DNA from: a virus
Length of the DNA: 38,834 nucleotides
Direction: 5' to 3' (one strand)
IMG/VR virus record: IMGVR_UViG_3300045988_143259
This document shows, piece by piece, positions 770 to 38,834 of the stretch (its first letter is position 1; each line of letters opens with the position of its first letter). The notes under the pieces were generated by a model. That model saw only the letters and a list, made by a program, of their open reading frames with translations. It was not told the DNA's origin and did not search any database. Made by a program: the position numbers and the translations under genes.

Positions 770-964
770 TCACAGACTTTTCCGCCGAATCGACGCCAAA
801 TCATTATTCACGGTCCCCCGACTCACATCGAGTTCTGCGGCCACGTCCTCGATGGCCCAACCACGCCGGTAGTGCAACTCAAAAGCCGCCCGCTCCCGGT
901 CCGTGAGCCACGGGTTCCCGTGCATTTTCTCCAACTGGGCGGGGCTGTACCGATACCTGGGCAT
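770..964 (-). CDS. orphan sigma-70 region-4 / LuxR-type HTH protein (64 aa)
   Basis: LTDRERAAFELHYRRGWAIEDVAAELDVSRGTVNNDLASIRRK matches the sigma region 4.2 HTH pattern. Nothing corresponds to regions 2-3. The gene lies 12 nt downstream of the endolysin. Confidence 0.75.
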   Translation of the reverse strand: MPRYRYSPAQLEKMHGNPWLTDRERAAFELHYRRGWAIEDVAAELDVSRGTVNNDLASIRRKSL

Positions 965-976
965 GGTACCACCCCC

Positions 977-1771
977 TCAGTCCAGCACCCCCAGACGGCC
1001 CAGCACAACGGCCAGCTCATCCCGCTTGACAGGGCGCTCCGGCTCCTGCCCGTCCACAATGCCTTTCAGCGTGGCTTTTTCCCAATGGCCCTGCTTCCGG
1101 CTCCACTCAGGTTCCGCCACAGCGGCGGCGAACGTCATGGCCTTGGTATACAGTGCGTAGGCCTGCGCCCCCGTCATCTCTGCCAACAACTTGTTGATAT
1201 CCATATCATCATCCTCCTTCTCCGGCCGCTGAATGGTGACCGGTTTTTTCACCACGAAATAGTATTTCACCTGCTGTTTGAACAGCGAATAGTTCCCCTG
1301 CGTCCGCGCCGTCCGGGTGCTGGCAGGATCGTTGATGTAGATGGTATTCCCGGTGATTTTCCACACCAGGACGAAGTGCCCGGAAGACGTCCAAAGCCCA
1401 CGGCCCATGCAGGCGATCACAAGATCACCCTGGTCAACGGCAGCCTTGGCCTGGGCGTGGTACGGGCTGTTGGGCTTGCCGTAGATGCTGGCCCCGTTGA
1501 GCATCTTGCAGGTCAGGCCGAAGCGCTTGGCGGCGGGGGCGAAGTAGCCGTAATAGGTCCCCTGGTGCGGGGCCTTGTAGCCGTGGGCCAGCGCCCAGGC
1601 ACACTCACTCTTCGGCGTGACGGATTTGTCCGCCCAGGTGGCCAGCACCATCGCCATAGCGGTAGGGCCACAGCCGGATTTGCCGATAGTGGTGCTTTCT
1701 CCCTTGGCCGAGTAGCTGATATTCGACCAGCGCTGGTCAGTCTGGAGATAGGAGGTCGGTTGTTTATTCAT
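977..1771 (-). CDS. endolysin, Peptidase_C39-like (papain-fold) cell-wall hydrolase with a C-terminal SLH-like wall-binding segment
   Basis: GKSGCGPTAMAMVLA (catalytic Cys context) and SSGHFVLVW (His). The C-terminal RPVKRDELAVVLGRLGVL resembles an SLH repeat. Its position is at the end of the lysis cassette. Confidence 0.85.
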   Translation of the reverse strand: MNKQPTSYLQTDQRWSNISYSAKGESTTIGKSGCGPTAMAMVLATWADKSVTPKSECAWALAHGYKAPHQGTYYGYFAPAAKRFGLTCKMLNGASIYGKPNSPYHAQAKAAVDQGDLVIACMGRGLWTSSGHFVLVWKITGNTIYINDPASTRTARTQGNYSLFKQQVKYYFVVKKPVTIQRPEKEDDDMDINKLLAEMTGAQAYALYTKAMTFAAAVAEPEWSRKQGHWEKATLKGIVDGQEPERPVKRDELAVVLGRLGVLD

Positions 1772-2306
1772 GCAACACCATCCAATCCTCCGCCAGCATG
1801 TCGGACTGGGAAGCTAGCCAACCAACCTGTCGGCCTCTTGTACCGCAAAAGACCAGCGCATGACTGCCAATGTCACAATGAAAAGCCATTAGAGCCGGAT
1901 CGTCTTCGTGCTGATAGTAGATGTTTTTTCCCAACTCTACCCACTGACCCTTTCCATTCCATCCGGCTCGGGCGATGCGCTCACCCTTCTTGGCAGCCTC
2001 CAGGGCAAGCCCGAAGTTCATGCCGTCGGTGGGCCTATAGGCTCCCTTGAACACCTCCTTGGGGCTCCAGCTCTCGTAGCCGTCCTCATAGCGGACCTTG
2101 TAGCCCTCCTCCACCGCAGCCCCAACAGGTACTGCATCGTGGATGGAGCAGACCTTTCCATTCACGCGGTTTGCAGGTTCGGCCTCAACGATCTTAGTTC
2201 CGATATAGCGGTTCATGTTCATCTTCTCCTTTTCGTAGATGCTTTTCTCTCGCGAGATATTCGCCCAGCGAGGGTCCGTTTGCAGGTAGCTGGTTGGTTT
2301 ATCCAT
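1764..2306 (-). CDS. DUF2829 (Tad2-like) protein with the common N-terminal IGTK...SWSPKEVF domain. The first 28 codons are a duplicated endolysin 5' end, so the functional start is probably ATG 2222 or 2216.
   Basis: MNFGLALEAAKKGERIARAGWNGKGQWV...VGWLASQSDMLAEDWMVL matches the DUF2829 consensus closely. AAGGAG precedes the internal ATGs at 2222 and 2216. N-terminal MDKPTSYLQTDPRWANIS copies the endolysin MNKQPTSYLQTDQRWSNIS. Confidence 0.85.
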   Translation of the reverse strand: MDKPTSYLQTDPRWANISREKSIYEKEKMNMNRYIGTKIVEAEPANRVNGKVCSIHDAVPVGAAVEEGYKVRYEDGYESWSPKEVFKGAYRPTDGMNFGLALEAAKKGERIARAGWNGKGQWVELGKNIYYQHEDDPALMAFHCDIGSHALVFCGTRGRQVGWLASQSDMLAEDWMVLHE

Positions 2307-2970: not shown

Positions 2971-3408
2971 TTATTCCTGGTAGGCTTCCCACCCGGCGGG
3001 GTAGGCATCCGGTGCCCACACATTGCTATCAATCAAAGACTTGTACAGCTTGCCCTTGTAGCTGACAATATCGCCCTTTTTGTAGGCATCGGTAGCACCC
3101 AACGGCTGAACCCATTCGGGATAGCCGCCGGAAGTCACCCCGATCTTTTTATACAGGCTGGTTGCCGTATCAGGGGGCCACTGTTCAGCGGACGTGTGGG
3201 CTTGTAGAACCTGGTAAAGTTGGGGGTCTCCTACGGCGTTGGTGCCGTAGGAAAACACATCCTTGATTTTGTAGGCGTGGCCTACCTCGTAAGCGGGGAA
3301 CACGGTTGGTACCTCTAGCAGAGTCTCAGCGTGTTCCTCCGGGTCCAACGTGGACAGGAAAAGCTGGATAGCTCGTCTCAGCTCCCGCACCGCTTGCAGT
3401 TTATCCAT
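2971..3408 (-). CDS. tail-fibre-associated protein with a CBM5/12-like carbohydrate-binding motif
   Basis: The C-terminal YKKGDIVSYKGKLYKSLIDSNVWAPDAYPAGWEAY fits the chitin/carbohydrate-binding 5/12 aromatic pattern. The gene follows the fibre genes. Confidence 0.65.
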   Translation of the reverse strand: MDKLQAVRELRRAIQLFLSTLDPEEHAETLLEVPTVFPAYEVGHAYKIKDVFSYGTNAVGDPQLYQVLQAHTSAEQWPPDTATSLYKKIGVTSGGYPEWVQPLGATDAYKKGDIVSYKGKLYKSLIDSNVWAPDAYPAGWEAYQE

Positions 3409-3697: not shown

Positions 3698-5125
3698 TCA
3701 GCCGATGGCGATGGCGGTGTATTTATAGCCAGAAATATTTAACTGTTCGTGCGTACTGTTGAAAGACCACCAAAAAATCTCATGCTTCGATTCACTACAA
3801 TTTAATGTAGACGTCCAACCACTATTACCGATGATAAAACAGCCTCCACGTTCGGAAAATGGATACAAAGTTCCTGTATATGTTCTGTTATTGTAGTCCC
3901 CACTCATGATTATCAAAAGAACCTTTGGTGAGAAATTGAATGTGAGAGAATTTTTGTTATCCTCCCCATACGTCCCCGTCCCAACATAACTAACAACCTG
4001 CACCCTCGCTTTATCCCCCAAACACCCCAGGTACTCAATGGTGGTGTTCGCTGGGATAGCGGCGTAGCCGGTGACGGGTTGGTAGCGGTCGGCGTAGACA
4101 ATATTTCCGACTCTGGTAAATATCGTGTTGGATGGAAAGAAAACAATCACCGATGAGGCAAAATCGGTATCAGTGTTATTACAATACGCGAATTTTCCTT
4201 GTAGCTCGTTTTTCGCCGTGGTTGCTGCGTTTGTTGTCGTTCCATCAATATAAGTTCCCCCGGTAGTTGCTAATGTGCAAGTGCCATCATCGGAGACGGA
4301 AAGGGCAGCACTGTCGTTCCAGTACGTTCCGACGCCACCAGGAGAACTTTTGCTGGTGATAGCAAAACTCCCTGTTTTTACATCCCCCAACGTATACCCT
4401 GCCTCTTTCGCGTCGCTCCCCTCCTGGTAGGCGTTGCGGTTGGTGGAGACGGGGTAGGTTACGGTGGTTCCGGCGGGGACGCCAATCACTTGTTGGCGCT
4501 TACTTGCCGCGATATACCACCTGCCGCTCTCTCCATTCAACAAGCCTTTCGTCATCGCGGCGTCGGCAGGAATCCACCAAATTTCACCGATTTTAAAGTG
4601 GGACATCCCTGTTTCAACCTGGGAAATCATTTTTATAAATTTCCCCTTAAATACGTTAGCTTTTGATGCATCATCATTCCACGGCTTAATAGTGATGGTG
4701 CTGGGATTTTTGATGCCTGTAATAGTTCCATCTTTGTTTACTGCGATTTCACTGCCGTATTCAAAAGTTCCGGAAGAGTCGGATGTAGCACTATTATTCG
4801 CCCATTTGATATAATGCAAGCCTTCCTGCACTGCGCCTAAACTATACGTTCCGTTGCCACTCGTGATAGTTTTACGCCACACATGCAAATCCCCCGCATG
4901 TGCCAAAGCGTTGAACATGTCATTGGGGGTGGCGGAAGAGGGGAGGCCGATGATGGGAGGGGTGGTGGGCTTTAGGATGTTGGCTAGGGTTTGGGCGACG
5001 GTTCCGGCGTTGTTGTCGATTTTCTGCCAGTTTTCGTTCAGCATCGTCTGGACGTTAAACGTGTCCGCCCCGTCGGTGGATGGGTTTTTCATGAGCAGAT
5101 TCAGATTTTCAGTGTTGCTTGCCAT
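3698..5125 (-). CDS. tail fibre / receptor-binding protein
   Basis: N-terminal MASNTENLNLLMKNPSTDGADTFNVQTMLNENWQKID is the conserved fibre N-terminus of XkdV-type proteins. It follows the DUF2313 gene. The C-terminal part is AT-rich. Confidence 0.85.
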   Translation of the reverse strand: MASNTENLNLLMKNPSTDGADTFNVQTMLNENWQKIDNNAGTVAQTLANILKPTTPPIIGLPSSATPNDMFNALAHAGDLHVWRKTITSGNGTYSLGAVQEGLHYIKWANNSATSDSSGTFEYGSEIAVNKDGTITGIKNPSTITIKPWNDDASKANVFKGKFIKMISQVETGMSHFKIGEIWWIPADAAMTKGLLNGESGRWYIAASKRQQVIGVPAGTTVTYPVSTNRNAYQEGSDAKEAGYTLGDVKTGSFAITSKSSPGGVGTYWNDSAALSVSDDGTCTLATTGGTYIDGTTTNAATTAKNELQGKFAYCNNTDTDFASSVIVFFPSNTIFTRVGNIVYADRYQPVTGYAAIPANTTIEYLGCLGDKARVQVVSYVGTGTYGEDNKNSLTFNFSPKVLLIIMSGDYNNRTYTGTLYPFSERGGCFIIGNSGWTSTLNCSESKHEIFWWSFNSTHEQLNISGYKYTAIAIG

Positions 5126-5668: not shown

Positions 5669-6734
5669 CAGTCAAAGTCACCTCCCCCAGCATCGGCGTC
5701 TCCCGGTCGCCCAGGGCTACGTTGGTTGTGCCGCCCGCAACGGTCAGGTTGCTGTGGTCCAATACGCCCTGGGTCGCGTTGATGCGGCTGGCGATCTGGG
5801 AGTAGGAGACGTAGGTGCCCGTTTTCTCAAAGGCCAAGCCCCGCAGGTACTCGGTCAGGGCCGCTTGCACCTTGGTTTTTACGCTCCCGATGCTGGCCCC
5901 GTCGGCCAGGGTGATCTTGGCCACTACGTCGATATATTTGGCCGTGCCCGTGGTTACGGTGCAGACAGCCCCGATGGGCGCTTCCCCCACGCCGTCCCCG
6001 TTGTGGTTGGGGTCGATGAGGGCCTGCACCTGCTGGATGAGGGGAGCGCCTGCCGGTTCCTGGTTGGCGTCCAGGATGCAGACTTCCACCGTGTTCTTGC
6101 CCTGGGCCTGGGGGAAAATCTTCACCCGGCCCACCCCGGCGACAGAGGTCGCCCAGGCAATGTAAGCCTGCTGGTTGGCCCCGTTGTTGGGGTTTTGCAG
6201 GTCGTCATAGTAGCGCTCCCGCAGCTCATCGTCTGTCTCGCTGTCATAGCCGCCGCTGGACGGCTCCGGGTTGGTCACGGCGGAAATGCCCGCGATGGTG
6301 ATGGGCATGTAGGTGATCGTGTTTGCCTCCACGTTGCCGGTTTCCCCGGCGTTGTAGGCCCGCACGGTAAATTTGCTCCCGGCCTCCACATCGGAGTCGG
6401 CAATGGCGTAAAACTGCACGCCGGATTCCGTGGAAAACAAATCACCCGCCGAAATGCTGCCGGCACCCGTCACGACCTGCATCTCTGCCGTGGCGTATGT
6501 GGCGTATTTGCGGATAATGCCACGATGCTGCTTGACAAACTCATCCAGGGCCACCCCGGTGAGGTTGTCCACGTTCAGATTTGCTTCCGCCGTGGCGATG
6601 TCATCGTCCAGGGAAAGCACCGCCTGGGCGAAAGCCGCCGTGAAATCGTAGGCCGGAAACCCGGCTGTTTTCTGGTATCGGTCGGGGATGCGGGCCAGCA
6701 TCTCCCGATGTACCGTGTCAAAATCAAGGGACAA
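5658..6734 (-). CDS. baseplate J-like protein (XkdT-like)
   Basis: 358 aa with baseplate_J-type sequence and synteny. TTG 6734 follows GGAGGTG. Confidence 0.85.
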   Translation of the reverse strand: MSLDFDTVHREMLARIPDRYQKTAGFPAYDFTAAFAQAVLSLDDDIATAEANLNVDNLTGVALDEFVKQHRGIIRKYATYATAEMQVVTGAGSISAGDLFSTESGVQFYAIADSDVEAGSKFTVRAYNAGETGNVEANTITYMPITIAGISAVTNPEPSSGGYDSETDDELRERYYDDLQNPNNGANQQAYIAWATSVAGVGRVKIFPQAQGKNTVEVCILDANQEPAGAPLIQQVQALIDPNHNGDGVGEAPIGAVCTVTTGTAKYIDVVAKITLADGASIGSVKTKVQAALTEYLRGLAFEKTGTYVSYSQIASRINATQGVLDHSNLTVAGGTTNVALGDRETPMLGEVTLTVVS

Positions 6735-34294: not shown

Positions 34295-34376
34295 ATTCTA
34301 GCCCTTTCTCATGGAAACCATATTCTTCCAAAGATGCAGAACAACAACAAAAAACGTCGAAAGAAGGGGAAAATTG

Positions 34377-35630
34377 ATGAAGAAAGACACAAAGTACAAA
34401 TACGTCCGAAAAACAATGACTTGGGAAGGGCGGAGATATGAGGTTACAGGGAAAACGGAAGCGGAGGCAATGGAGAAGCTGGGGGCGCTGAAAGAGACGC
34501 TGCGGCGGGGTGAGGGGACCATCGGGCCGGACGTGACGGTTGACCGGTGGTTCCGGGAGTGGTTTGATTTGTACAAGGTTCCGGCGGGGCTGACCAAGAA
34601 ATCGTTGGGGATGTACGGGGAGAAATACAGGGGTTATATTGGCCCCGCCATCGGGCGGATGAGACTGCGAGAAGTGCGAGAGGCGCATTTACAGCGCATC
34701 CTCAACAGTCAGGCCGGGCGCTCCTACTCCCACGTCTCGAAGCTACGGCTGGTGATGACGGAGATGTTTTCCAGAGCTGCAAGCACCCGGCTTATCCCAT
34801 TTGACCCATCGACCAAACTGGAGCTGCCAGAAAACAAAAAAGGCACCCATCGTTCGCTCACGCCCGAAGAGCGAGAGCTTTTTCTCTCAGTCGCGCAGAC
34901 TCATCGGGCCGGGCTGTTTATCCTAACGATCCTGTATGCAGGTCTGCGCCCCGGCGAAGCCGCCGCGCTGAACTGGGAAGACATTGATTTTGATCGGAGA
35001 GAAATCATCGTGCATAAAGCTGTGGAGAGCGGCAACGAAAACATCAAGGACACCAAGACGCCGGCAGGGCGGCGAGAGATCCCCATGAACGCCGTTCTGA
35101 CCCAGCGGATGTTAGAGGCCAGAGGGAAACCAAAGGAGCCGGTGTTCCGGGTGCGGACCGGGAAGCGCGTCGACCACCAGGCAATCCGCCGCATGTGGAC
35201 ATCGTTTATGCGGGAGGTAGATATCCGCATGGGGGCAAAAACATACCGCAACAAAATCATCGAAAGCGCCCTGCCGCCCGGCCTGACCGCCTACTGCCTG
35301 CGCCACACCTTCTGCACGGACCTCCAACGTTCCGAAACCCCCATCAACGTGGCCAAAGAGCTGATGGGCCACCAGGATGTAAGCACAACAGCCAACATCT
35401 ACACCCACAAAGATCAGGATGTTTTGCGAAAATTTATTGATAAAACCGAAAACTACAACATCACCGAGACAAAATCTGTGTGTTATGCTGATGCTTTAGC
35501 CCTGGCAATAGGCCAGGGAGTGGCAGATTTCGGCCTACCAAAGCCAAAAATCACAGTTCACACCACATCCTACACCACCCCCGCCGAACCGGTCCCCGTG
35601 GAAAACCCCGTGGAAAAAGTTTTCGGGTAA
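34377..35630 (+). CDS. int: tyrosine integrase
   Basis: N-terminal KYKYVRKTMTWEGRRYEVTGKTEAEAMEKL arm-binding type. Catalytic residues in LRPGEAAAL (R), CLRHTF (HxxR) and GHQDVSTTANIYTH (H..Y). An unusually long tail of about 75 aa follows the Tyr. Confidence 0.9.
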   Translation: MKKDTKYKYVRKTMTWEGRRYEVTGKTEAEAMEKLGALKETLRRGEGTIGPDVTVDRWFREWFDLYKVPAGLTKKSLGMYGEKYRGYIGPAIGRMRLREVREAHLQRILNSQAGRSYSHVSKLRLVMTEMFSRAASTRLIPFDPSTKLELPENKKGTHRSLTPEERELFLSVAQTHRAGLFILTILYAGLRPGEAAALNWEDIDFDRREIIVHKAVESGNENIKDTKTPAGRREIPMNAVLTQRMLEARGKPKEPVFRVRTGKRVDHQAIRRMWTSFMREVDIRMGAKTYRNKIIESALPPGLTAYCLRHTFCTDLQRSETPINVAKELMGHQDVSTTANIYTHKDQDVLRKFIDKTENYNITETKSVCYADALALAIGQGVADFGLPKPKITVHTTSYTTPAEPVPVENPVEKVFG

Positions 35631-35680: not shown

Positions 35681-35725
35681 TTCCGGTTCTGAGGGTTGGG
35701 GGTTCGAGTCCCTTCTGGCGTGCCA
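35681..35725 (+). other. attP core: 3' half of a tRNA gene (anticodon loop to CCA)
   Basis: ggggg-ttcgagt-ccctt T-arm, then exactly 7 nt (ctggcgt) + g + cca. Counting back gives variable loop gggtt, stem tctga and loop ttCCGgt (anticodon CCG, Arg). No complementary 5' half lies upstream. Confidence 0.7.
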
Positions 35726-35730
35726 AAAAG

Positions 35731-35775
35731 AAAAAGCCGAAAAGTCCTTGATTTTCAAGGGTTTTTCGGCTTTTC
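35731..35775. terminator. bidirectional long-hairpin terminator directly after the tRNA 3' end
   Basis: agccgaaaa-[ccttga-ttt-tcaagg]-tttttcggct, with T-runs on both strands. Confidence 0.8.
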
Positions 35776-35879
35776 TGCTTGTTCTAAAATCCCGAATCAC
35801 TGCCTTTTAGCTGGCAAAAACTAGGGAAAAACACCGGTTTTTCCAGGTTTCAGGTGTGGAAAGGACGTGGAAAAAAATC

Positions 35880-36185
35880 TCACATCCCCTCGATCTTCCC
35901 CCGCACCTTCGCCACCCACGGCTCCGTCCGCTCCTCGGTCAGCTCACAAATCGCCGAAATCCCGGCCTTGTTGTCCTCCTCGGTGGCGTCCCGGCAAATC
36001 TTTCTCATCATGTCCATGAGCATGTCCCGATGTCCCAGCTCCTGGCTGGCCATGGTCGCATAGCTCCGAGCCATGTTAGGATCGTACTCTCTCAGTTTTT
36101 TGGCGATTTTGCCATAGTGCTGCGCCCCCATGATTTCATCGTCAATGTCGGCGGCGATGGATTTGATCTGCTCCAGTTTCGTCAT
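35880..36185 (-). CDS. island gene E: 101-aa helical protein with a ferritin-like E..H motif
   Basis: ATG 36185 follows GAGGTG. The product is MTKLEQIKSIAADIDDEIMGAQHYGKIAKK...MASQELGHRDMLMDMM. Confidence 0.7.
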   Translation of the reverse strand: MTKLEQIKSIAADIDDEIMGAQHYGKIAKKLREYDPNMARSYATMASQELGHRDMLMDMMRKICRDATEEDNKAGISAICELTEERTEPWVAKVRGKIEGM

Positions 36186-36195
36186 GGCAATCACC

Positions 36196-36594
36196 TCAGA
36201 TCTTGTCCACGGTGACGGCGATATTGGAAACGGTAGCGGCGGCAGACAGCACCACAGTATAAGTGGCTCCGGCGCAGTTGCCAAACTGACGCACCATCGC
36301 GGTGAGCGGCAGCGTCACAGCCTCACCCACAGCGGCGGCGGTGACGGTAGCGGTAGCACCAGGCACGGCCACACCGTCCCGCATCAGCGTGGCGGTGATA
36401 GCCCCGGCGGCGGCAGGCAGGGCAGTCAGTACGATGTCAAAATCGTAATAGCCCGCGCCGTTGATGATGATGCCGTTGCCGTTGAGGTTGATATTACAGC
36501 CGAACCGGCGGTTGATGCTCCCCAGCGGGATCGAGCCGCCCGCCGTAGCGGTGGCCCCGGTGTTTACGGTATAGATACCAGAGTTACAGCTCAT
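36196..36594 (-). CDS. island gene D: 132-aa Ala/Thr/Gly-rich all-beta protein, C1q/TNF-like (BclA C-terminal-domain-like)
   Basis: ATG 36594 follows GAGAGAGGAGC. The pattern GGSIPLGSI...INGAGYYDFDIVL...LMRDGVAVPGATATV...LPLTAMV resembles the BclA_C jelly-roll. There are no collagen repeats. Confidence 0.6.
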   Translation of the reverse strand: MSCNSGIYTVNTGATATAGGSIPLGSINRRFGCNINLNGNGIIINGAGYYDFDIVLTALPAAAGAITATLMRDGVAVPGATATVTAAAVGEAVTLPLTAMVRQFGNCAGATYTVVLSAAATVSNIAVTVDKI

Positions 36595-36612
36595 AATTTT
36601 TGCTCCTCTCTC

Positions 36613-36645
36613 AAAAAACAGAGGCGGGGACATTCGCCCCCGCCC
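36613..36645 (-). terminator. internal intrinsic terminator between island genes C and D
   Basis: Minus strand: ggcgggg-cgaatgt-ccccgcc, followed by TCTGTTTTTT. Confidence 0.75.
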
Positions 36646-36664
36646 ACCCGGTCAACGTGACCAA

Positions 36665-37258
36665 TCAGATGTTGCCGTTGCTACACCCGCCGAAAAACGG
36701 GTTGCAGTTGGTTGCATACGCAGTGCTGGTAGGATACCGCACCACGCCGCACATGGCCTGAGCAAGCTCAAGCTGCTGGATGCGAGCAGCCATAGCCGCC
36801 TCACGGTCCGCGCACATTTTGTCCAGCACCTTCTGGATGCCAGCGGTGATGTTTGCGTTGGTAGCCGCGTTGTAGTTGGCCATGTCAAACCGCACACTGT
36901 CGATATTGCGCTGGGTGGTGCAGCAGCACTCAGCGATCTGCGCCATCAGGTCCCGGAAATTGCCCTGGGTGGAATAGCCCAGGTCGCAGATGCCCTTAGT
37001 CAGGTTGATGTTTACGCCATCCAACTGGTCACTCAGACGACCAACTGCGCCCTTCATTTCGACAAACGAGTTGGCGCTGCACAAGTCCGCCTCGGTGACG
37101 GGGTTGCCGTTGCTCCGGCCACCGAACCCGAAACCGCCGCCGAACATAAAAATGATGGCGAACAGAATGATCAGGATGAAGCCGTTGCCCCAGCCTTTTC
37201 CGTCGCCACCGCCGCCCAGAACAGCGGCGATGTCGGACAAGCTAAAATTGCTATCCAT
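36665..37258 (-). CDS. island gene C: bitopic membrane protein with a Gly-zipper TM and a 9-Cys Asn/Gly-rich C-terminal domain
   Basis: ATG 37258 follows AAGGAG. N-terminal GGGGDGKGWGNGFILIILFAIIFMFGGGFGFGG, then ...GICDLGY...IAECCCTTQRNID...NCNPFFGGCSNGNI. Confidence 0.75.
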   Translation of the reverse strand: MDSNFSLSDIAAVLGGGGDGKGWGNGFILIILFAIIFMFGGGFGFGGRSNGNPVTEADLCSANSFVEMKGAVGRLSDQLDGVNINLTKGICDLGYSTQGNFRDLMAQIAECCCTTQRNIDSVRFDMANYNAATNANITAGIQKVLDKMCADREAAMAARIQQLELAQAMCGVVRYPTSTAYATNCNPFFGGCSNGNI

Positions 37259-37317
37259 GTTATTTTTCTCCTTTTCGGGAATTTTATCAGCGGTTGGCCA
37301 CCCCGCAGATAATCATG

Positions 37318-37545
37318 TTAAAAAAGCCCCTTGAATTGGTTCAGGTCGATGCCGTGCTCCGCGGCCACCTGCTCCGGGGTTTTGCCTTTGCAGCTCTGCA
37401 CAAACTGGGCAAACTGCGGATTTCTCTGCATCAACAGAGGAATCAGTTTCTCAGGATCCTTGCCTTTCAATGTGGAAATCAGTTGCGCGATCATGGCAAC
37501 CGGATTTGCTCCACCGGCAGCCTTCTGAAATAATGGGTTACTCAT
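37318..37545 (-). CDS. island gene B: 75-aa helical protein
   Basis: ATG 37545 lies 7 nt after GGAGGG, in an ATGAGTAA overlap with gene A. The product is MSNPLFQKAAGGANPVAMIAQL...LMQRNPQFAQFVQSCKGKTPEQV. Confidence 0.7.
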   Translation of the reverse strand: MSNPLFQKAAGGANPVAMIAQLISTLKGKDPEKLIPLLMQRNPQFAQFVQSCKGKTPEQVAAEHGIDLNQFKGLF

Positions 37546-37930
37546 CCGCAAACCCTCCGATCTGTTCGTTTAATTTATTCAAAAATTCGGAAAACTCCGC
37601 CTTGGTCACAAACTCTGGTTCCGCCGCTTTCTGTGTAGCCTCCGGGTCGTATTTTTCAAAACGGTAATAGTTAGTCGTGGTGATGCCAGTGGTGTCCGCC
37701 TCTTTCACAGCAAACACCGGTTCTCCCTGCGCCATGATCCAGGCCTTCACACCCGGTTGTACGCTCACGTTAGCGATGTCAGCTACTCCGGGTACCAGAA
37801 CCCACCCAGGCCCATTCTGACGCTCCTGGGCGCTTCCTGCACCCTGTGGCGGCGTCTGACGTTGCCACCATGGGCTTTGCATCGACATTTGCCCCCATCC
37901 AGTCATCACGGGATAGCCTAACTCAAACAT
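37538..37930 (-). CDS. island gene A: 130-aa protein with a Q/P/W-rich N-terminus and a small beta-rich core
   Basis: ATG 37930 lies 8 nt after GGAGG. The core is GWVLVPGVADIANVSVQPGVKAWIMAQGEPVFAVKEADTTG. Confidence 0.7.
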   Translation of the reverse strand: MFELGYPVMTGWGQMSMQSPWWQRQTPPQGAGSAQERQNGPGWVLVPGVADIANVSVQPGVKAWIMAQGEPVFAVKEADTTGITTTNYYRFEKYDPEATQKAAEPEFVTKAEFSEFLNKLNEQIGGFADE

Positions 37931-37955: not shown

Positions 37956-37964
37956 ATCGTACCA
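37956..37964 (-). promoter_or_regulatory. extended -10 promoter element for island operon A-E
   Basis: Minus strand TGgTACGAT. The same TGgTA architecture occurs at 31116-31124 and 38079-38087. Confidence 0.45.
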
Positions 37965-37984
37965 AATTTTTACAGCCCACTTGT

Positions 37985-38028
37985 CCAAACCATGCCCAAT
38001 TCCTGCTCAATTTATGCTCAATTTATGC
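37985..38028. repeat. four phased 11-bp tandem repeats upstream of the A-E promoter
   Basis: ccaaaccatgc / ccaattcctgc / tcaatttatgc / tcaatttatgc. The last two are identical. Confidence 0.8.
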
Positions 38029-38036
38029 CCAACAAA

Positions 38037-38064
38037 AAGCCCGCCCCCAAAATGGGACGGGTTT
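38037..38064 (-). terminator. intrinsic terminator oriented leftward in the island spacer
   Basis: Stem cccgcccc/gggacggg with one mismatch, followed on the minus strand by CTTTTTGTT. Confidence 0.5.
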
Positions 38065-38239: not shown

Positions 38240-38289
38240 AAGGACAGTTAAGAGAGAAACCCACAGAATAAAAAACGGAGGCAAACAAA

Positions 38290-38484
38290 ATGACTAAGAC
38301 CTACTTTTTCCCTGATGACTACACCGAATTTGACATTTTCGGTCAGGAGATGCCCGTTTGTATCGACCGCGCAGAGTGTGAGCGGCTGGCTAGAGAATAT
38401 GAAATGACCGTGGCAGAATTCATGGACCACATGCATGAGGCCAGCGAGAGTGAGATTGCAGAGTACGGAGTGTATGCAGAGTAA
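38290..38484 (+). CDS. small very acidic protein (64 aa)
   Basis: The ATG follows ACGGAGG. About 17 of 64 residues are Asp/Glu. The product is MTKTYFFPDDYTEFDIFGQEMPVCIDRAECERLAREYEMTVAEFMDHMHEASESEIAEYGVYAE. Confidence 0.7.
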   Translation: MTKTYFFPDDYTEFDIFGQEMPVCIDRAECERLAREYEMTVAEFMDHMHEASESEIAEYGVYAE

Positions 38485-38505
38485 GCATGGATGGAGGTTT
38501 GAGAA

Positions 38506-38652
38506 ATGGATGATGCAAGAATCGAGATTCGCATGAGTACGGAGATGAAATCCCAGTTGCAAGCGCTGGCTAAGTCTGGAAGCATGACGGTGGGCGGCTA
38601 TATCAAGTCGCTCATCCAGCGTGAGATCGAGAAGAGCAAGGGGACGGCATAA
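38506..38652 (+). CDS. ribbon-helix-helix (CopG/Arc-like) protein, 48 aa, unannotated in the ORF track
   Basis: ATG 38506 lies 8 nt after GGAGG. MDDARIEIRMSTEMKSQLQALAKSGSMTVGGYIKSLIQREIEKSKGTA fits the beta-strand, helix, G-turn, helix pattern. Confidence 0.7.
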   Translation: MDDARIEIRMSTEMKSQLQALAKSGSMTVGGYIKSLIQREIEKSKGTA

Positions 38653-38682
38653 CGCCGCCCCATCACTTCATTAGGAGGAACC

Positions 38683-38834
38683 ATGGAGGAAACCAAAAAA
38701 TCCGGTGTAAAGGGCGTCTCCTGGAACAAGAAAACCCAGAAATGGATCGTGAAACTATCAAACAAATATTTCGGGAGCTTCGCCAACCTAGAGGATGCCA
38801 TCCAAAAACGTAGAGAGATAGAGACCAAAAAAAC
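38683..38834 (+). CDS. AP2-domain / zinc-ribbon / ribbon-helix-helix DNA-binding protein, 5' part (continues at 1..421 across the circular junction; about 187 aa in total)
   Basis: ATG 38683 lies 4 nt after AGGAGG (38673-38678). The N-terminus MEETKKSGVKGVSWNKKTQKWIVKLSNKYFGSFANLEDAIQKR fits the AP2/ERF-type strand-strand-strand-helix pattern. Position 38749 equals position 14 and is in frame. Confidence 0.8.
   Translation, partial: MEETKKSGVKGVSWNKKTQKWIVKLSNKYFGSFANLEDAIQKRREIETKK
38736..38834. repeat. Terminal direct overlap, copy 2
   Basis: Exact 99-nt match to 1-99. Confidence 0.95.

Follow-up and report, generated by a model that had tools for sequence, protein, structure and literature searches.

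The viral DNA IMGVR_UViG_3300045988_143259 from IMG/VR, a stretch of 38,834 nucleotides (nt) that we refer to as a whole as the window, carries a compact cassette of five minus-strand genes, A to E. Together with a small upstream gene, S, these genes make up a module that is carried by thousands of phages from gut and rumen, crosses the divide between Firmicutes, Bacteroidota and Spirochaetota with its gene order intact, and whose constant neighbor is the lysis module. Neither annotated phage records, family libraries nor the literature yielded a description of it; the literature covered included work on small sigma-region-4 phage proteins encoded beside lysis genes and on links between C. perfringens phages and sporulation. 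We tentatively favor the reading that the module encodes an S-activated, late, membrane-associated assembly acting at lysis time. An earlier reading of the letters of this DNA (the original prediction) had singled out the five genes as an operon; the five are indeed coherent, but the sixth member, S, had been missed.

A colinear cassette beside the lysis genes

We assembled 49 loci anchored on gene C, of which 7 came from IMG/VR, 4 from integrated prophages and 38 from GTDB genomes, and searched them with iterative hidden Markov models (HMMs) built on their open reading frames (ORFs). Alongside C (49/49), A was found in 46 of these loci, B in 45, D in 40, S in 40, E in 24 and F, an alternative last gene, in 11. 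At least 45 of the 49 loci keep A, B and C colinear, and the order is always S-A-B-C-D-(E or F). The second set comprised 30 further loci anchored on an endolysin of the type encoded in the window: 20 have S, a variable island and then A-B-C, with a C protein that is mostly longer (∼280 amino acids, aa), and 2 have S on a sequence that ends before the cassette. Whether the five genes would recur elsewhere as a conserved cassette had been raised by the original prediction, and their colinearity in dozens of loci answers that question in the affirmative.

In Firmicutes prophages the order is tail fiber, holin, endolysin, S, A to E, and then att, a tRNA gene or an integrase. The cassette comes after a holin and an amidase in Evtepia prophages and after an endolysin in loci L005 and L007, while in a decayed Firmicutes prophage (L082) a remnant of it precedes holin and endolysin. 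A search with the A profile also returned a protein from the genome of a Treponema bryantii isolate. In loci of the Treponema bryantii and Bacteroidaceae type, the order is tail fiber, S-A-B-C-D2-E (D2 being a protein in the D slot that is described below), holin-like ORFs, an Rz-like gene, a CHAP endolysin and, later, an integrase; the Rz-like gene of these diderm-host loci lies downstream of the cassette and overlaps a lipobox ORF, its own match to Rz being weak (E 0.002). Since the gene order thus differs between hosts, the constant neighbor of the cassette is the lysis module and not att. The att-proximal cargo slot in which the cassette had originally been placed is correct for the lineage of the window but does not hold as a conserved context, the diderm-host phages having the cassette between tail fiber and lysis genes, far from att. 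Prophages of Clostridia, Bacteroidaceae and Treponema carry the module, and all hosts seen so far are gut or rumen anaerobes. Among cultured phages we found it only in CPD1-type phages of C. perfringens; in CPD1 itself it has the lysis module on one side and the replication module on the other.

The five ORFs have the strand and lengths that had been assigned to them (Table 1). The stop of A overlaps the start of B as ATGAGTAA, the coupling that had been proposed, and the strong ribosome-binding sites noted before can be read as GGAGG-type sites upstream of A, C, D and E. Base composition confirmed that the GC content of the cassette equals that of the phage backbone. Against relatives with 88-97% protein identity, the ratio of nonsynonymous to synonymous substitutions (dN/dS) is 0.02-0.18 across all five genes, which indicates strong purifying selection. 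In locus L001, B (5713-5940) is 63% identical to the B of the window, whereas D and E are 95-97% identical; this contrast points to recombination between cassette variants, that is, to mosaicism inside the cassette.

Table 1. Coordinates of the module, its control elements and neighboring features in the window
Feature	Coordinates	Strand	Remarks
A	37538-37930	-	130 aa
B	37318-37545	-	75 aa
C	36665-37258	-	197 aa; anchor gene of the module
D	36196-36594	-	132 aa
E	35880-36185	-	101 aa
S	770-964	-	64-aa sigma-70 region-4-only helix-turn-helix (HTH) protein; 12 nt downstream of the putative endolysin
Terminator-like hairpin and T-run	38040-38061	-	Upstream of the cassette promoter; absent from the original prediction; conserved in relatives
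Phased 11-bp repeat array	37983-38029	-	GCAtAAATTGAGC twice, then GCAGGAATTGGGC, then TGGTTTGGAC; candidate S-binding array
Extended -10, TGGTACGAT	37956-37964	-	Read from the sequence; -10 and upstream region conserved in relatives
Internal intrinsic terminator or attenuator, C/D gap	36612-36645	-	10-pair hairpin 36645-36622, then T-run
Closing terminators	35732-35844		Minus-strand hairpin 35844-35825 and 20-pair bidirectional hairpin 35732-35774
Variable cargo island between S and A	1-740 and 38263-38834		Plus-strand Arc/RHH-like and DksA-zinc-finger/HNH-like ORFs
Peptidase_C39_2-like protein	977-1771	-	264 aa; in the slot of Amidase_2 or CHAP endolysins in relatives
Tad2-like (Thoeris anti-defense 2) protein	1764-2306	-	180 aa; Pfam PF11195, E 1.5e-20; just upstream of the putative endolysin
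Tyrosine integrase	34311-35630	+	Adjoins the attP core
attP core	35681-35725	+	3' 45 nt (anticodon loop to CCA) of a tRNA-Arg(CCG) gene

A small regulator and a conserved control region

The S ORF of the window was matched by a family HMM built from the loci at E 1e-26. Its Pfam scores exceed the cut-offs of Sigma70_r4_2 (34.2 bits vs 25.7) and Sigma70_r4 (30.2 vs 24.1), and the PHROG sigma-factor families align to it only over their C-terminal 40-45 residues, which correspond to region 4. Sigma region 2, responsible for core binding and -10 recognition, is absent from the 64-aa protein, and S therefore cannot be a sigma factor. A Pfam match to GerE remained below threshold. In most loci S immediately precedes A, and S is also missing from the four endolysin-anchored loci that have a full downstream flank but no cassette; it belongs to the cassette as its upstream member. 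Within the module, the space from S to A acts as a hot spot for insertions: in place of the cargo island of the window, close relatives have 1.3-3.7 kb of unrelated genes, frequently encoded on the other strand.

The S-A intergenic region typically contains a GC-rich hairpin with a T-run, followed directly by a TAnAAT-type -10 element, often with TG. We found a perfect-stem terminator between S and A in 15 of 29 distinct loci, as against 0.1 in shuffled sequences, and a -10 hexamer (at least 5 of 6 matches, at most 25 nt from the terminator) in 8 of the 29, as against 0 in shuffles. The hairpin that occupies this position in the window is predicted to insulate the cassette promoter from upstream transcription. 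The extended -10 that had been read there as TGgTACGAT is present and, like the region upstream of it, conserved.

Between terminator and -10, the lineage of the window has 11-bp repeats (GCATAAATTGAGC twice, then GCAGGAATTGGGC and TGGTTTGGAC), each with a -35-like hexamer inside it. The last of these hexamers, TTGGAC at 37988-37983, stands 21 nt upstream of the -10, and the three exact contiguous copies of the repeat are the only exact matches genome-wide. The array is kept in relatives even when their A and C are of divergent subtypes, and the Evtepia prophage L008 has an analogous array of AATTTGK repeats with the same 21-nt spacing to the -10. Given that S consists of a -35-reading domain only and that a -35-like array stands before the promoter, S is most simply read as the activator of this promoter.

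The terminator that had been placed after C is likewise a conserved feature: a perfect-stem terminator within 130 nt downstream of C was found in 33 of 46 distinct loci (mean 0.3 and maximum 2 in shuffles). The ribosome-binding site of D follows it directly and leaves no room for a promoter, so that D and E would be made only by read-through. The bidirectional hairpin thought to close the operon was found as well. With a predicted promoter and terminator of its own, the cassette would have the layout expected of a moron. A scan of the window and of the cassette surroundings against Rfam gave no riboswitch and no other known RNA family.

The proteins of the module

The proteins A, B and C are orphans, without sequence relatives of known function, the fold having been compared for A. 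More generally, the original remark that the five proteins could be placed in no known virion, lysis, replication or defense family stood up to searches of Pfam, PHROGs, NCBIfam, PADLOC and PDB profiles, and of structures with Foldseek in the case of A; PADLOC, in its 2023 database, which excludes newer systems, gave no family at E ≤ 1 for any of A to E. By visual inspection of the N-termini, A, B, D and E have no signal peptide.

C has a conserved N-terminal SLSDIAAV motif, a Gly-flanked hydrophobic segment and nine cysteines, including an invariant CCC triplet, in line with the earlier count on the translated sequence. It corresponds to PHROG 16490, of unknown function, and no source attaches an informative family name to it. 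We detected no relative of C in Pfam, NCBIfam or PADLOC (E ≤ 1) or among PDB profiles, and the resemblance to YjcZ that had been suggested is thus unsupported by any Pfam or NCBIfam family. At 50% identity the C family falls into 1,957 representative clusters, and one variant occurs on 495 contigs; with ∼2,000 such clusters, the module ranks among the commoner dark matter of gut and rumen phages. The possibility that C is an i-spanin was discarded, as the host lineage, Oscillospirales in the Firmicutes, is taken to be monoderm, and the diderm relatives carry separate spanin-like genes. In L082 (6001-7164), the N-terminus of a tape-measure protein (PhageMin_Tail) is fused in frame to the C-terminal half of a C homolog. 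This fusion (P0387) was considered as a Rosetta-stone clue and set aside; as the decayed prophage has lost its distal tail genes, a deletion scar is the probable origin.

An AlphaFold2 model of A (core pLDDT, the predicted local distance difference test, of 83-89) comprises a disordered Q/P/W-rich N-terminus (1-35), a small beta domain (40-92) and C-terminal helices, in agreement with what had been read from the sequence. A Foldseek search of the PDB with this model returned nothing below E 0.2, and the matches in BFVD were only uncharacterized gut-phage proteins, so that the modeled A would represent an orphan fold. A is PHROG 21718 and has a dN/dS of 0.06-0.09. B (PHROG 22984) has an M/Q/N/P-rich N-terminal half and a conserved NPQF...GK(T/N)PEQ... 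motif; its profile found no credible relative in the PDB, the matches being designed proteins and a repeat-driven TAL-effector artifact. B is translationally coupled to A through the overlap, and A-B fusion proteins exist (P0157 and P0220). Coupled, sometimes fused and without export signals, A and B may thus be cytoplasmic partners of C. In Clostridium phage CPD1, an HNH homing endonuclease (CPD1_038, PHROG 374, E 5e-65; L050 5182-5805) lies between B and C.

D begins with a motif MSC(K/N)S, which reads MSCNSGIYTV in the window. Its match to Pfam BclA_C (E 4e-5, 23.9 bits) falls below the curated cut-off of 38, while a profile of the 33-sequence D family matches the BclA C-terminal domain (CTD) at E 6e-6, the cerebellin C1q domain at 3e-5, the F-BclA CTD 9H38 at 1e-3 over the full length and ExsF/BxpB at 4e-3 to 2e-2 (9H38 and 9H3D are identified in PMC12357932). 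The 132-aa sequence has no exosporium leader and no collagen-like GXX repeats. D is thus predicted to be a stand-alone C1q/TNF-type (BclA_C-like) domain and a new member of this fold, which agrees with the C1q-like, stalkless protein described before. We also considered whether D imitates, as a copy or decoy, the fiber tip of the phage itself and rejected this, as D has no similarity to the fiber proteins encoded at 3698-5125 and 2971-3408.

Where D was undetected, its slot holds D2, a beta-rich protein of 110-135 aa (L034 3809-4138, L052 12060-12470 and relatives). D2 found no relative in Pfam, PHROG or the PDB. The only features that it has in common with D are an N-terminal M-S/A-C-K motif and a C-terminal Cys cluster, and profile comparison was negative apart from the N-terminal MSCK motif; D2 was accordingly dismissed as a divergent form of D.

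For E, the ferritin-like character proposed on the strength of a short motif is upheld by a match to Pfam Rubrerythrin over residues 14-68 (26.8 bits vs a cut-off of 22.8). The residues E17, Y24, E49 and H52 are invariant in 19 family members and make up one E/ExxH metal site; within its 101 aa, E has no second ligand pair and no rubredoxin CxxC domain. Its profile matches a Dps-like protein, bacterioferritin, rubrerythrin and symerythrin weakly in the PDB. E would be a half-size ferritin-like protein with one predicted metal half-site. The alternative last gene, F (∼190 aa), matches true ferritins (E 2e-5) and has lost the histidine of ExxH. An hhalign probability of only 15% spoke against E and F being homologous versions of one gene; their assignment to the ferritin superfamily is predicted for each on separate evidence. 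In one lineage the last slot is taken by a DUF7841 protein. A 123-128-aa protein with a YTKKQIAD... motif follows E in the Treponema/Bacteroidaceae versions (L083 9155-9529, L042 6310-6696 and L037 6261-6632); it has no PHROG match and may be a further, lineage-specific member of the module.

Genome setting

The window begins and ends with a 99-bp exact direct terminal repeat (1-99 and 38736-38834), indicating a circularly closed phage genome of 38,735 bp. The attP core is identical at 44 of 45 nt to the tRNA-Arg(CCG) gene flanking the integrated relative L008 in Evtepia gabavorous, so that the attP of the original prediction is right; the window itself contains no complete tRNA. The host is probably a related member of the Oscillospirales. 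Upstream of S, the Peptidase_C39_2-like protein is probably an unusual cysteine-peptidase endolysin, and the Tad2-like gene next to it is a candidate anti-defense gene.

Interpretation and alternatives

In the reading that we tentatively prefer, S would be made at the distal end of the late/lysis transcript, where we place it because its gene starts 12 nt after that of the putative endolysin. It would bind the 11-bp-phased -35-like repeats on one face of the helix and activate the extended -10 promoter, which has no properly spaced -35. A, B and C would then form a delayed-late class, produced in bulk at the very end of the lytic cycle, with D and E following in smaller amounts whenever transcription passes the C/D terminator. 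C would tether to the cytoplasmic membrane an oligomeric assembly, helical and rich in Cys, whose job could be the control or modification of the membrane at lysis, in other words lysis timing, a block of further phage DNA entry, or both. A lysis-time role is suggested because the cassette is constantly linked to the lysis cassette. The module most likely does not serve to decorate spores or the cell surface. More speculatively, the N-terminal Cys motif shared by D and D2 may, with the Cys-rich tail of C, point to attachment through metals or disulfides, and the anaerobic gut or rumen setting of all hosts seen so far is a second speculative lead to the roles of the C1q-like and ferritin-like members. 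Spelled out in full, this would be an undescribed, phylum-spanning module in which S drives a redox- or metal-dependent membrane device, with C as the stalk, A and B as partners and substoichiometric D or D2 and E or F, that times lysis or gates the membrane in anaerobes; we regard this full version as rather unlikely.

Several observations weigh against an S-activated assembly acting at lysis. Morons classically have just this layout, a private promoter with flanking terminators within or at the end of a late operon, and it would suit prophage expression just as well. S might repress and not activate, and in two loci (L066 and L068) the cassette occurs without a detectable S. The cassette is dispensable: four loci with the same endolysin and a full downstream flank (L063, L065, L067 and L080) have neither the cassette nor S. 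Lysis control explains neither the C1q-like nor the ferritin-like member, and the analogy with T, RI and RIII of phage T4, which we take up below, is one of architecture and not of homology. The AlphaFold2 model of C (pLDDT 48) is too poor for a fold search, indicating no more than a hydrophobic helix and a long helix (65-163). The charges flanking the hydrophobic segment are near neutral and favor no orientation of C; one variant implies N-in/C-out.

A possible, if somewhat unlikely, alternative is that the cassette is a moron expressed in the lysogen from its own promoter and encoding a membrane device for superinfection exclusion, an undescribed form of defense or some other fitness trait. 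This comes near to the original prediction, which had named an exclusion device among its suggestions. Its own promoter and the terminators on both sides agree with this, as do the membrane-anchored protein C, the last position before attP or a tRNA in the lineage of the window, the hypervariable cargo island alongside, which is typical of accessory hot spots, and the absence from some close relatives. However, A to E have no PADLOC match, the GC content is that of the backbone, and the deep colinear conservation across bacterial phyla is unlike that of typical defense morons. The regulator S also appears to be co-transcribed with the late lysis genes, given the 12-nt gap after the putative endolysin, and diderm-host phages carry the cassette between tail and lysis genes, not at att. 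A last argument comes from lifestyle, as the module is also found in CPD1-type C. perfringens phages, whose relatives serve as lytic phages; one of these, CPP8, is described as lytic without lysogeny genes. This argument is weak, since CPD1 is annotated with an integrase.

It is improbable that the genes form a virion-associated accessory set, with D, a C1q-like trimer in this view, and A/B as a late morphogenetic, decoration or fiber add-on to the particles and C as an assembly platform or ejection-type protein. C1q/TNF-like heads are common at fiber tips and the nearest relatives of D are fiber heads (BclA and F-BclA), the module directly follows the tail fiber genes in diderm-host phages, and D, with no export signal, would fold in the cytoplasm like virion proteins. 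Against this, D is unlike the phage's own fiber proteins, no member has a PHROG structural annotation, and structural genes seldom come with a regulator of their own and an internal terminator. The module is moreover dispensable in relatives with the same lysis gene and occurs with sipho-, myo- and podo-labeled genomes alike.

We find it very improbable that a GerE-like small regulator drives BclA/ExsF-like and Cys-rich proteins onto the spores of lysogens to remodel the spore surface or exosporium. The original prediction had named a spore surface among its suggestions, and the closest solved relatives of D are all Bacillus exosporium proteins (BclA, F-BclA and ExsF/BxpB), S has its sub-threshold GerE match, the architecture of A is GerQ-like, many hosts are Clostridia, and the absence of signal peptides from A, B, D and E is matched in coat and exosporium proteins. 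Yet the Treponema bryantii isolate genome has the module, and so do Bacteroidaceae-type prophages that carry spanin-like genes. These diderm hosts do not sporulate, which rules out a spore-specific role, and D is replaced there by the unrelated D2; C, for its part, matches no YjcZ, coat or exosporium family. Finally, that these are unrelated hypothetical ORFs brought together by chance, an idea with only the lack of annotation in its favor, is practically negligible, given that more than 70 loci from different phyla share the colinear order and that the genes show purifying selection, fusions and conserved control signals.

If lysis control or exclusion proved to be its function, the module would extend the textbook lysis cassette by a new component in phages of anaerobes. 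S and its recognizable cis-element provide an immediate experimental handle, and the function is directly testable, since cultured CPD1-type C. perfringens phages and the cultivable Evtepia gabavorous carry the module.

Comparison with known systems

Judging from its sequences, the module as a system matches no known kind, although several of its parts have recognizable counterparts. The D family profile matches the CTDs of BclA and F-BclA and the ExsF/BxpB protein of the Bacillus cereus group exosporium, and D shares with ExsF/BxpB the form of a stand-alone domain of ∼130-170 aa without an export signal. D differs from BclA-type proteins in being phage-encoded, within a cassette that is also found in non-sporulating hosts, and in having neither a collagen-like stalk nor an exosporium leader.

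E keeps the E...Y...ExxH signature of ferritin-like proteins (rubrerythrin, erythrin and bacterioferritin), and F matches ferritins. E differs from them in having one half-site instead of two in a four-helix bundle, and in having no rubredoxin domain. Encapsulated ferritins, of ∼100 aa, build a di-iron site across a dimer; unlike these, E was seen with neither an encapsulin shell gene nor a targeting peptide. S resembles sigma-70 region 4 and HTH domains of the GerE/LuxR type in its matches to region-4 models and in the -35-like array before the cassette promoter. It differs from sigma-70 proteins in its small size (64 aa) and missing region 2, and its GerE match lies below the cut-off; for S, DNA binding and activation are predicted.

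Lysis inhibition in phage T4 involves the class III bitopic holin T with its small partners RI and RIII. C is similar to T in its putative architecture, being a bitopic protein of ∼200 aa with a short N-terminal tail, one hydrophobic segment and a large Cys-containing C-terminal domain, and it is likewise encoded with small soluble partners beside lysis functions. There is, however, no sequence or profile similarity between the two systems, the Pfam matches of C include neither Phage_holin_T nor any other holin family, and the phages with the cassette already carry canonical holins. The C1q-like and ferritin-like members are also extra with respect to the T4 system.

Morons of the type described by Hendrix include bor and lom of phage lambda and the exclusion protein gp15 of HK97. 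The module is like them in its private promoter and terminators, its place within or at the end of the late region, its att-adjacent position in the lineage of the window and its dispensability. It differs from them in its size of 5-7 genes, its dedicated regulator, its backbone-like GC content and its deep conservation, with a gene order that is fixed across phyla.

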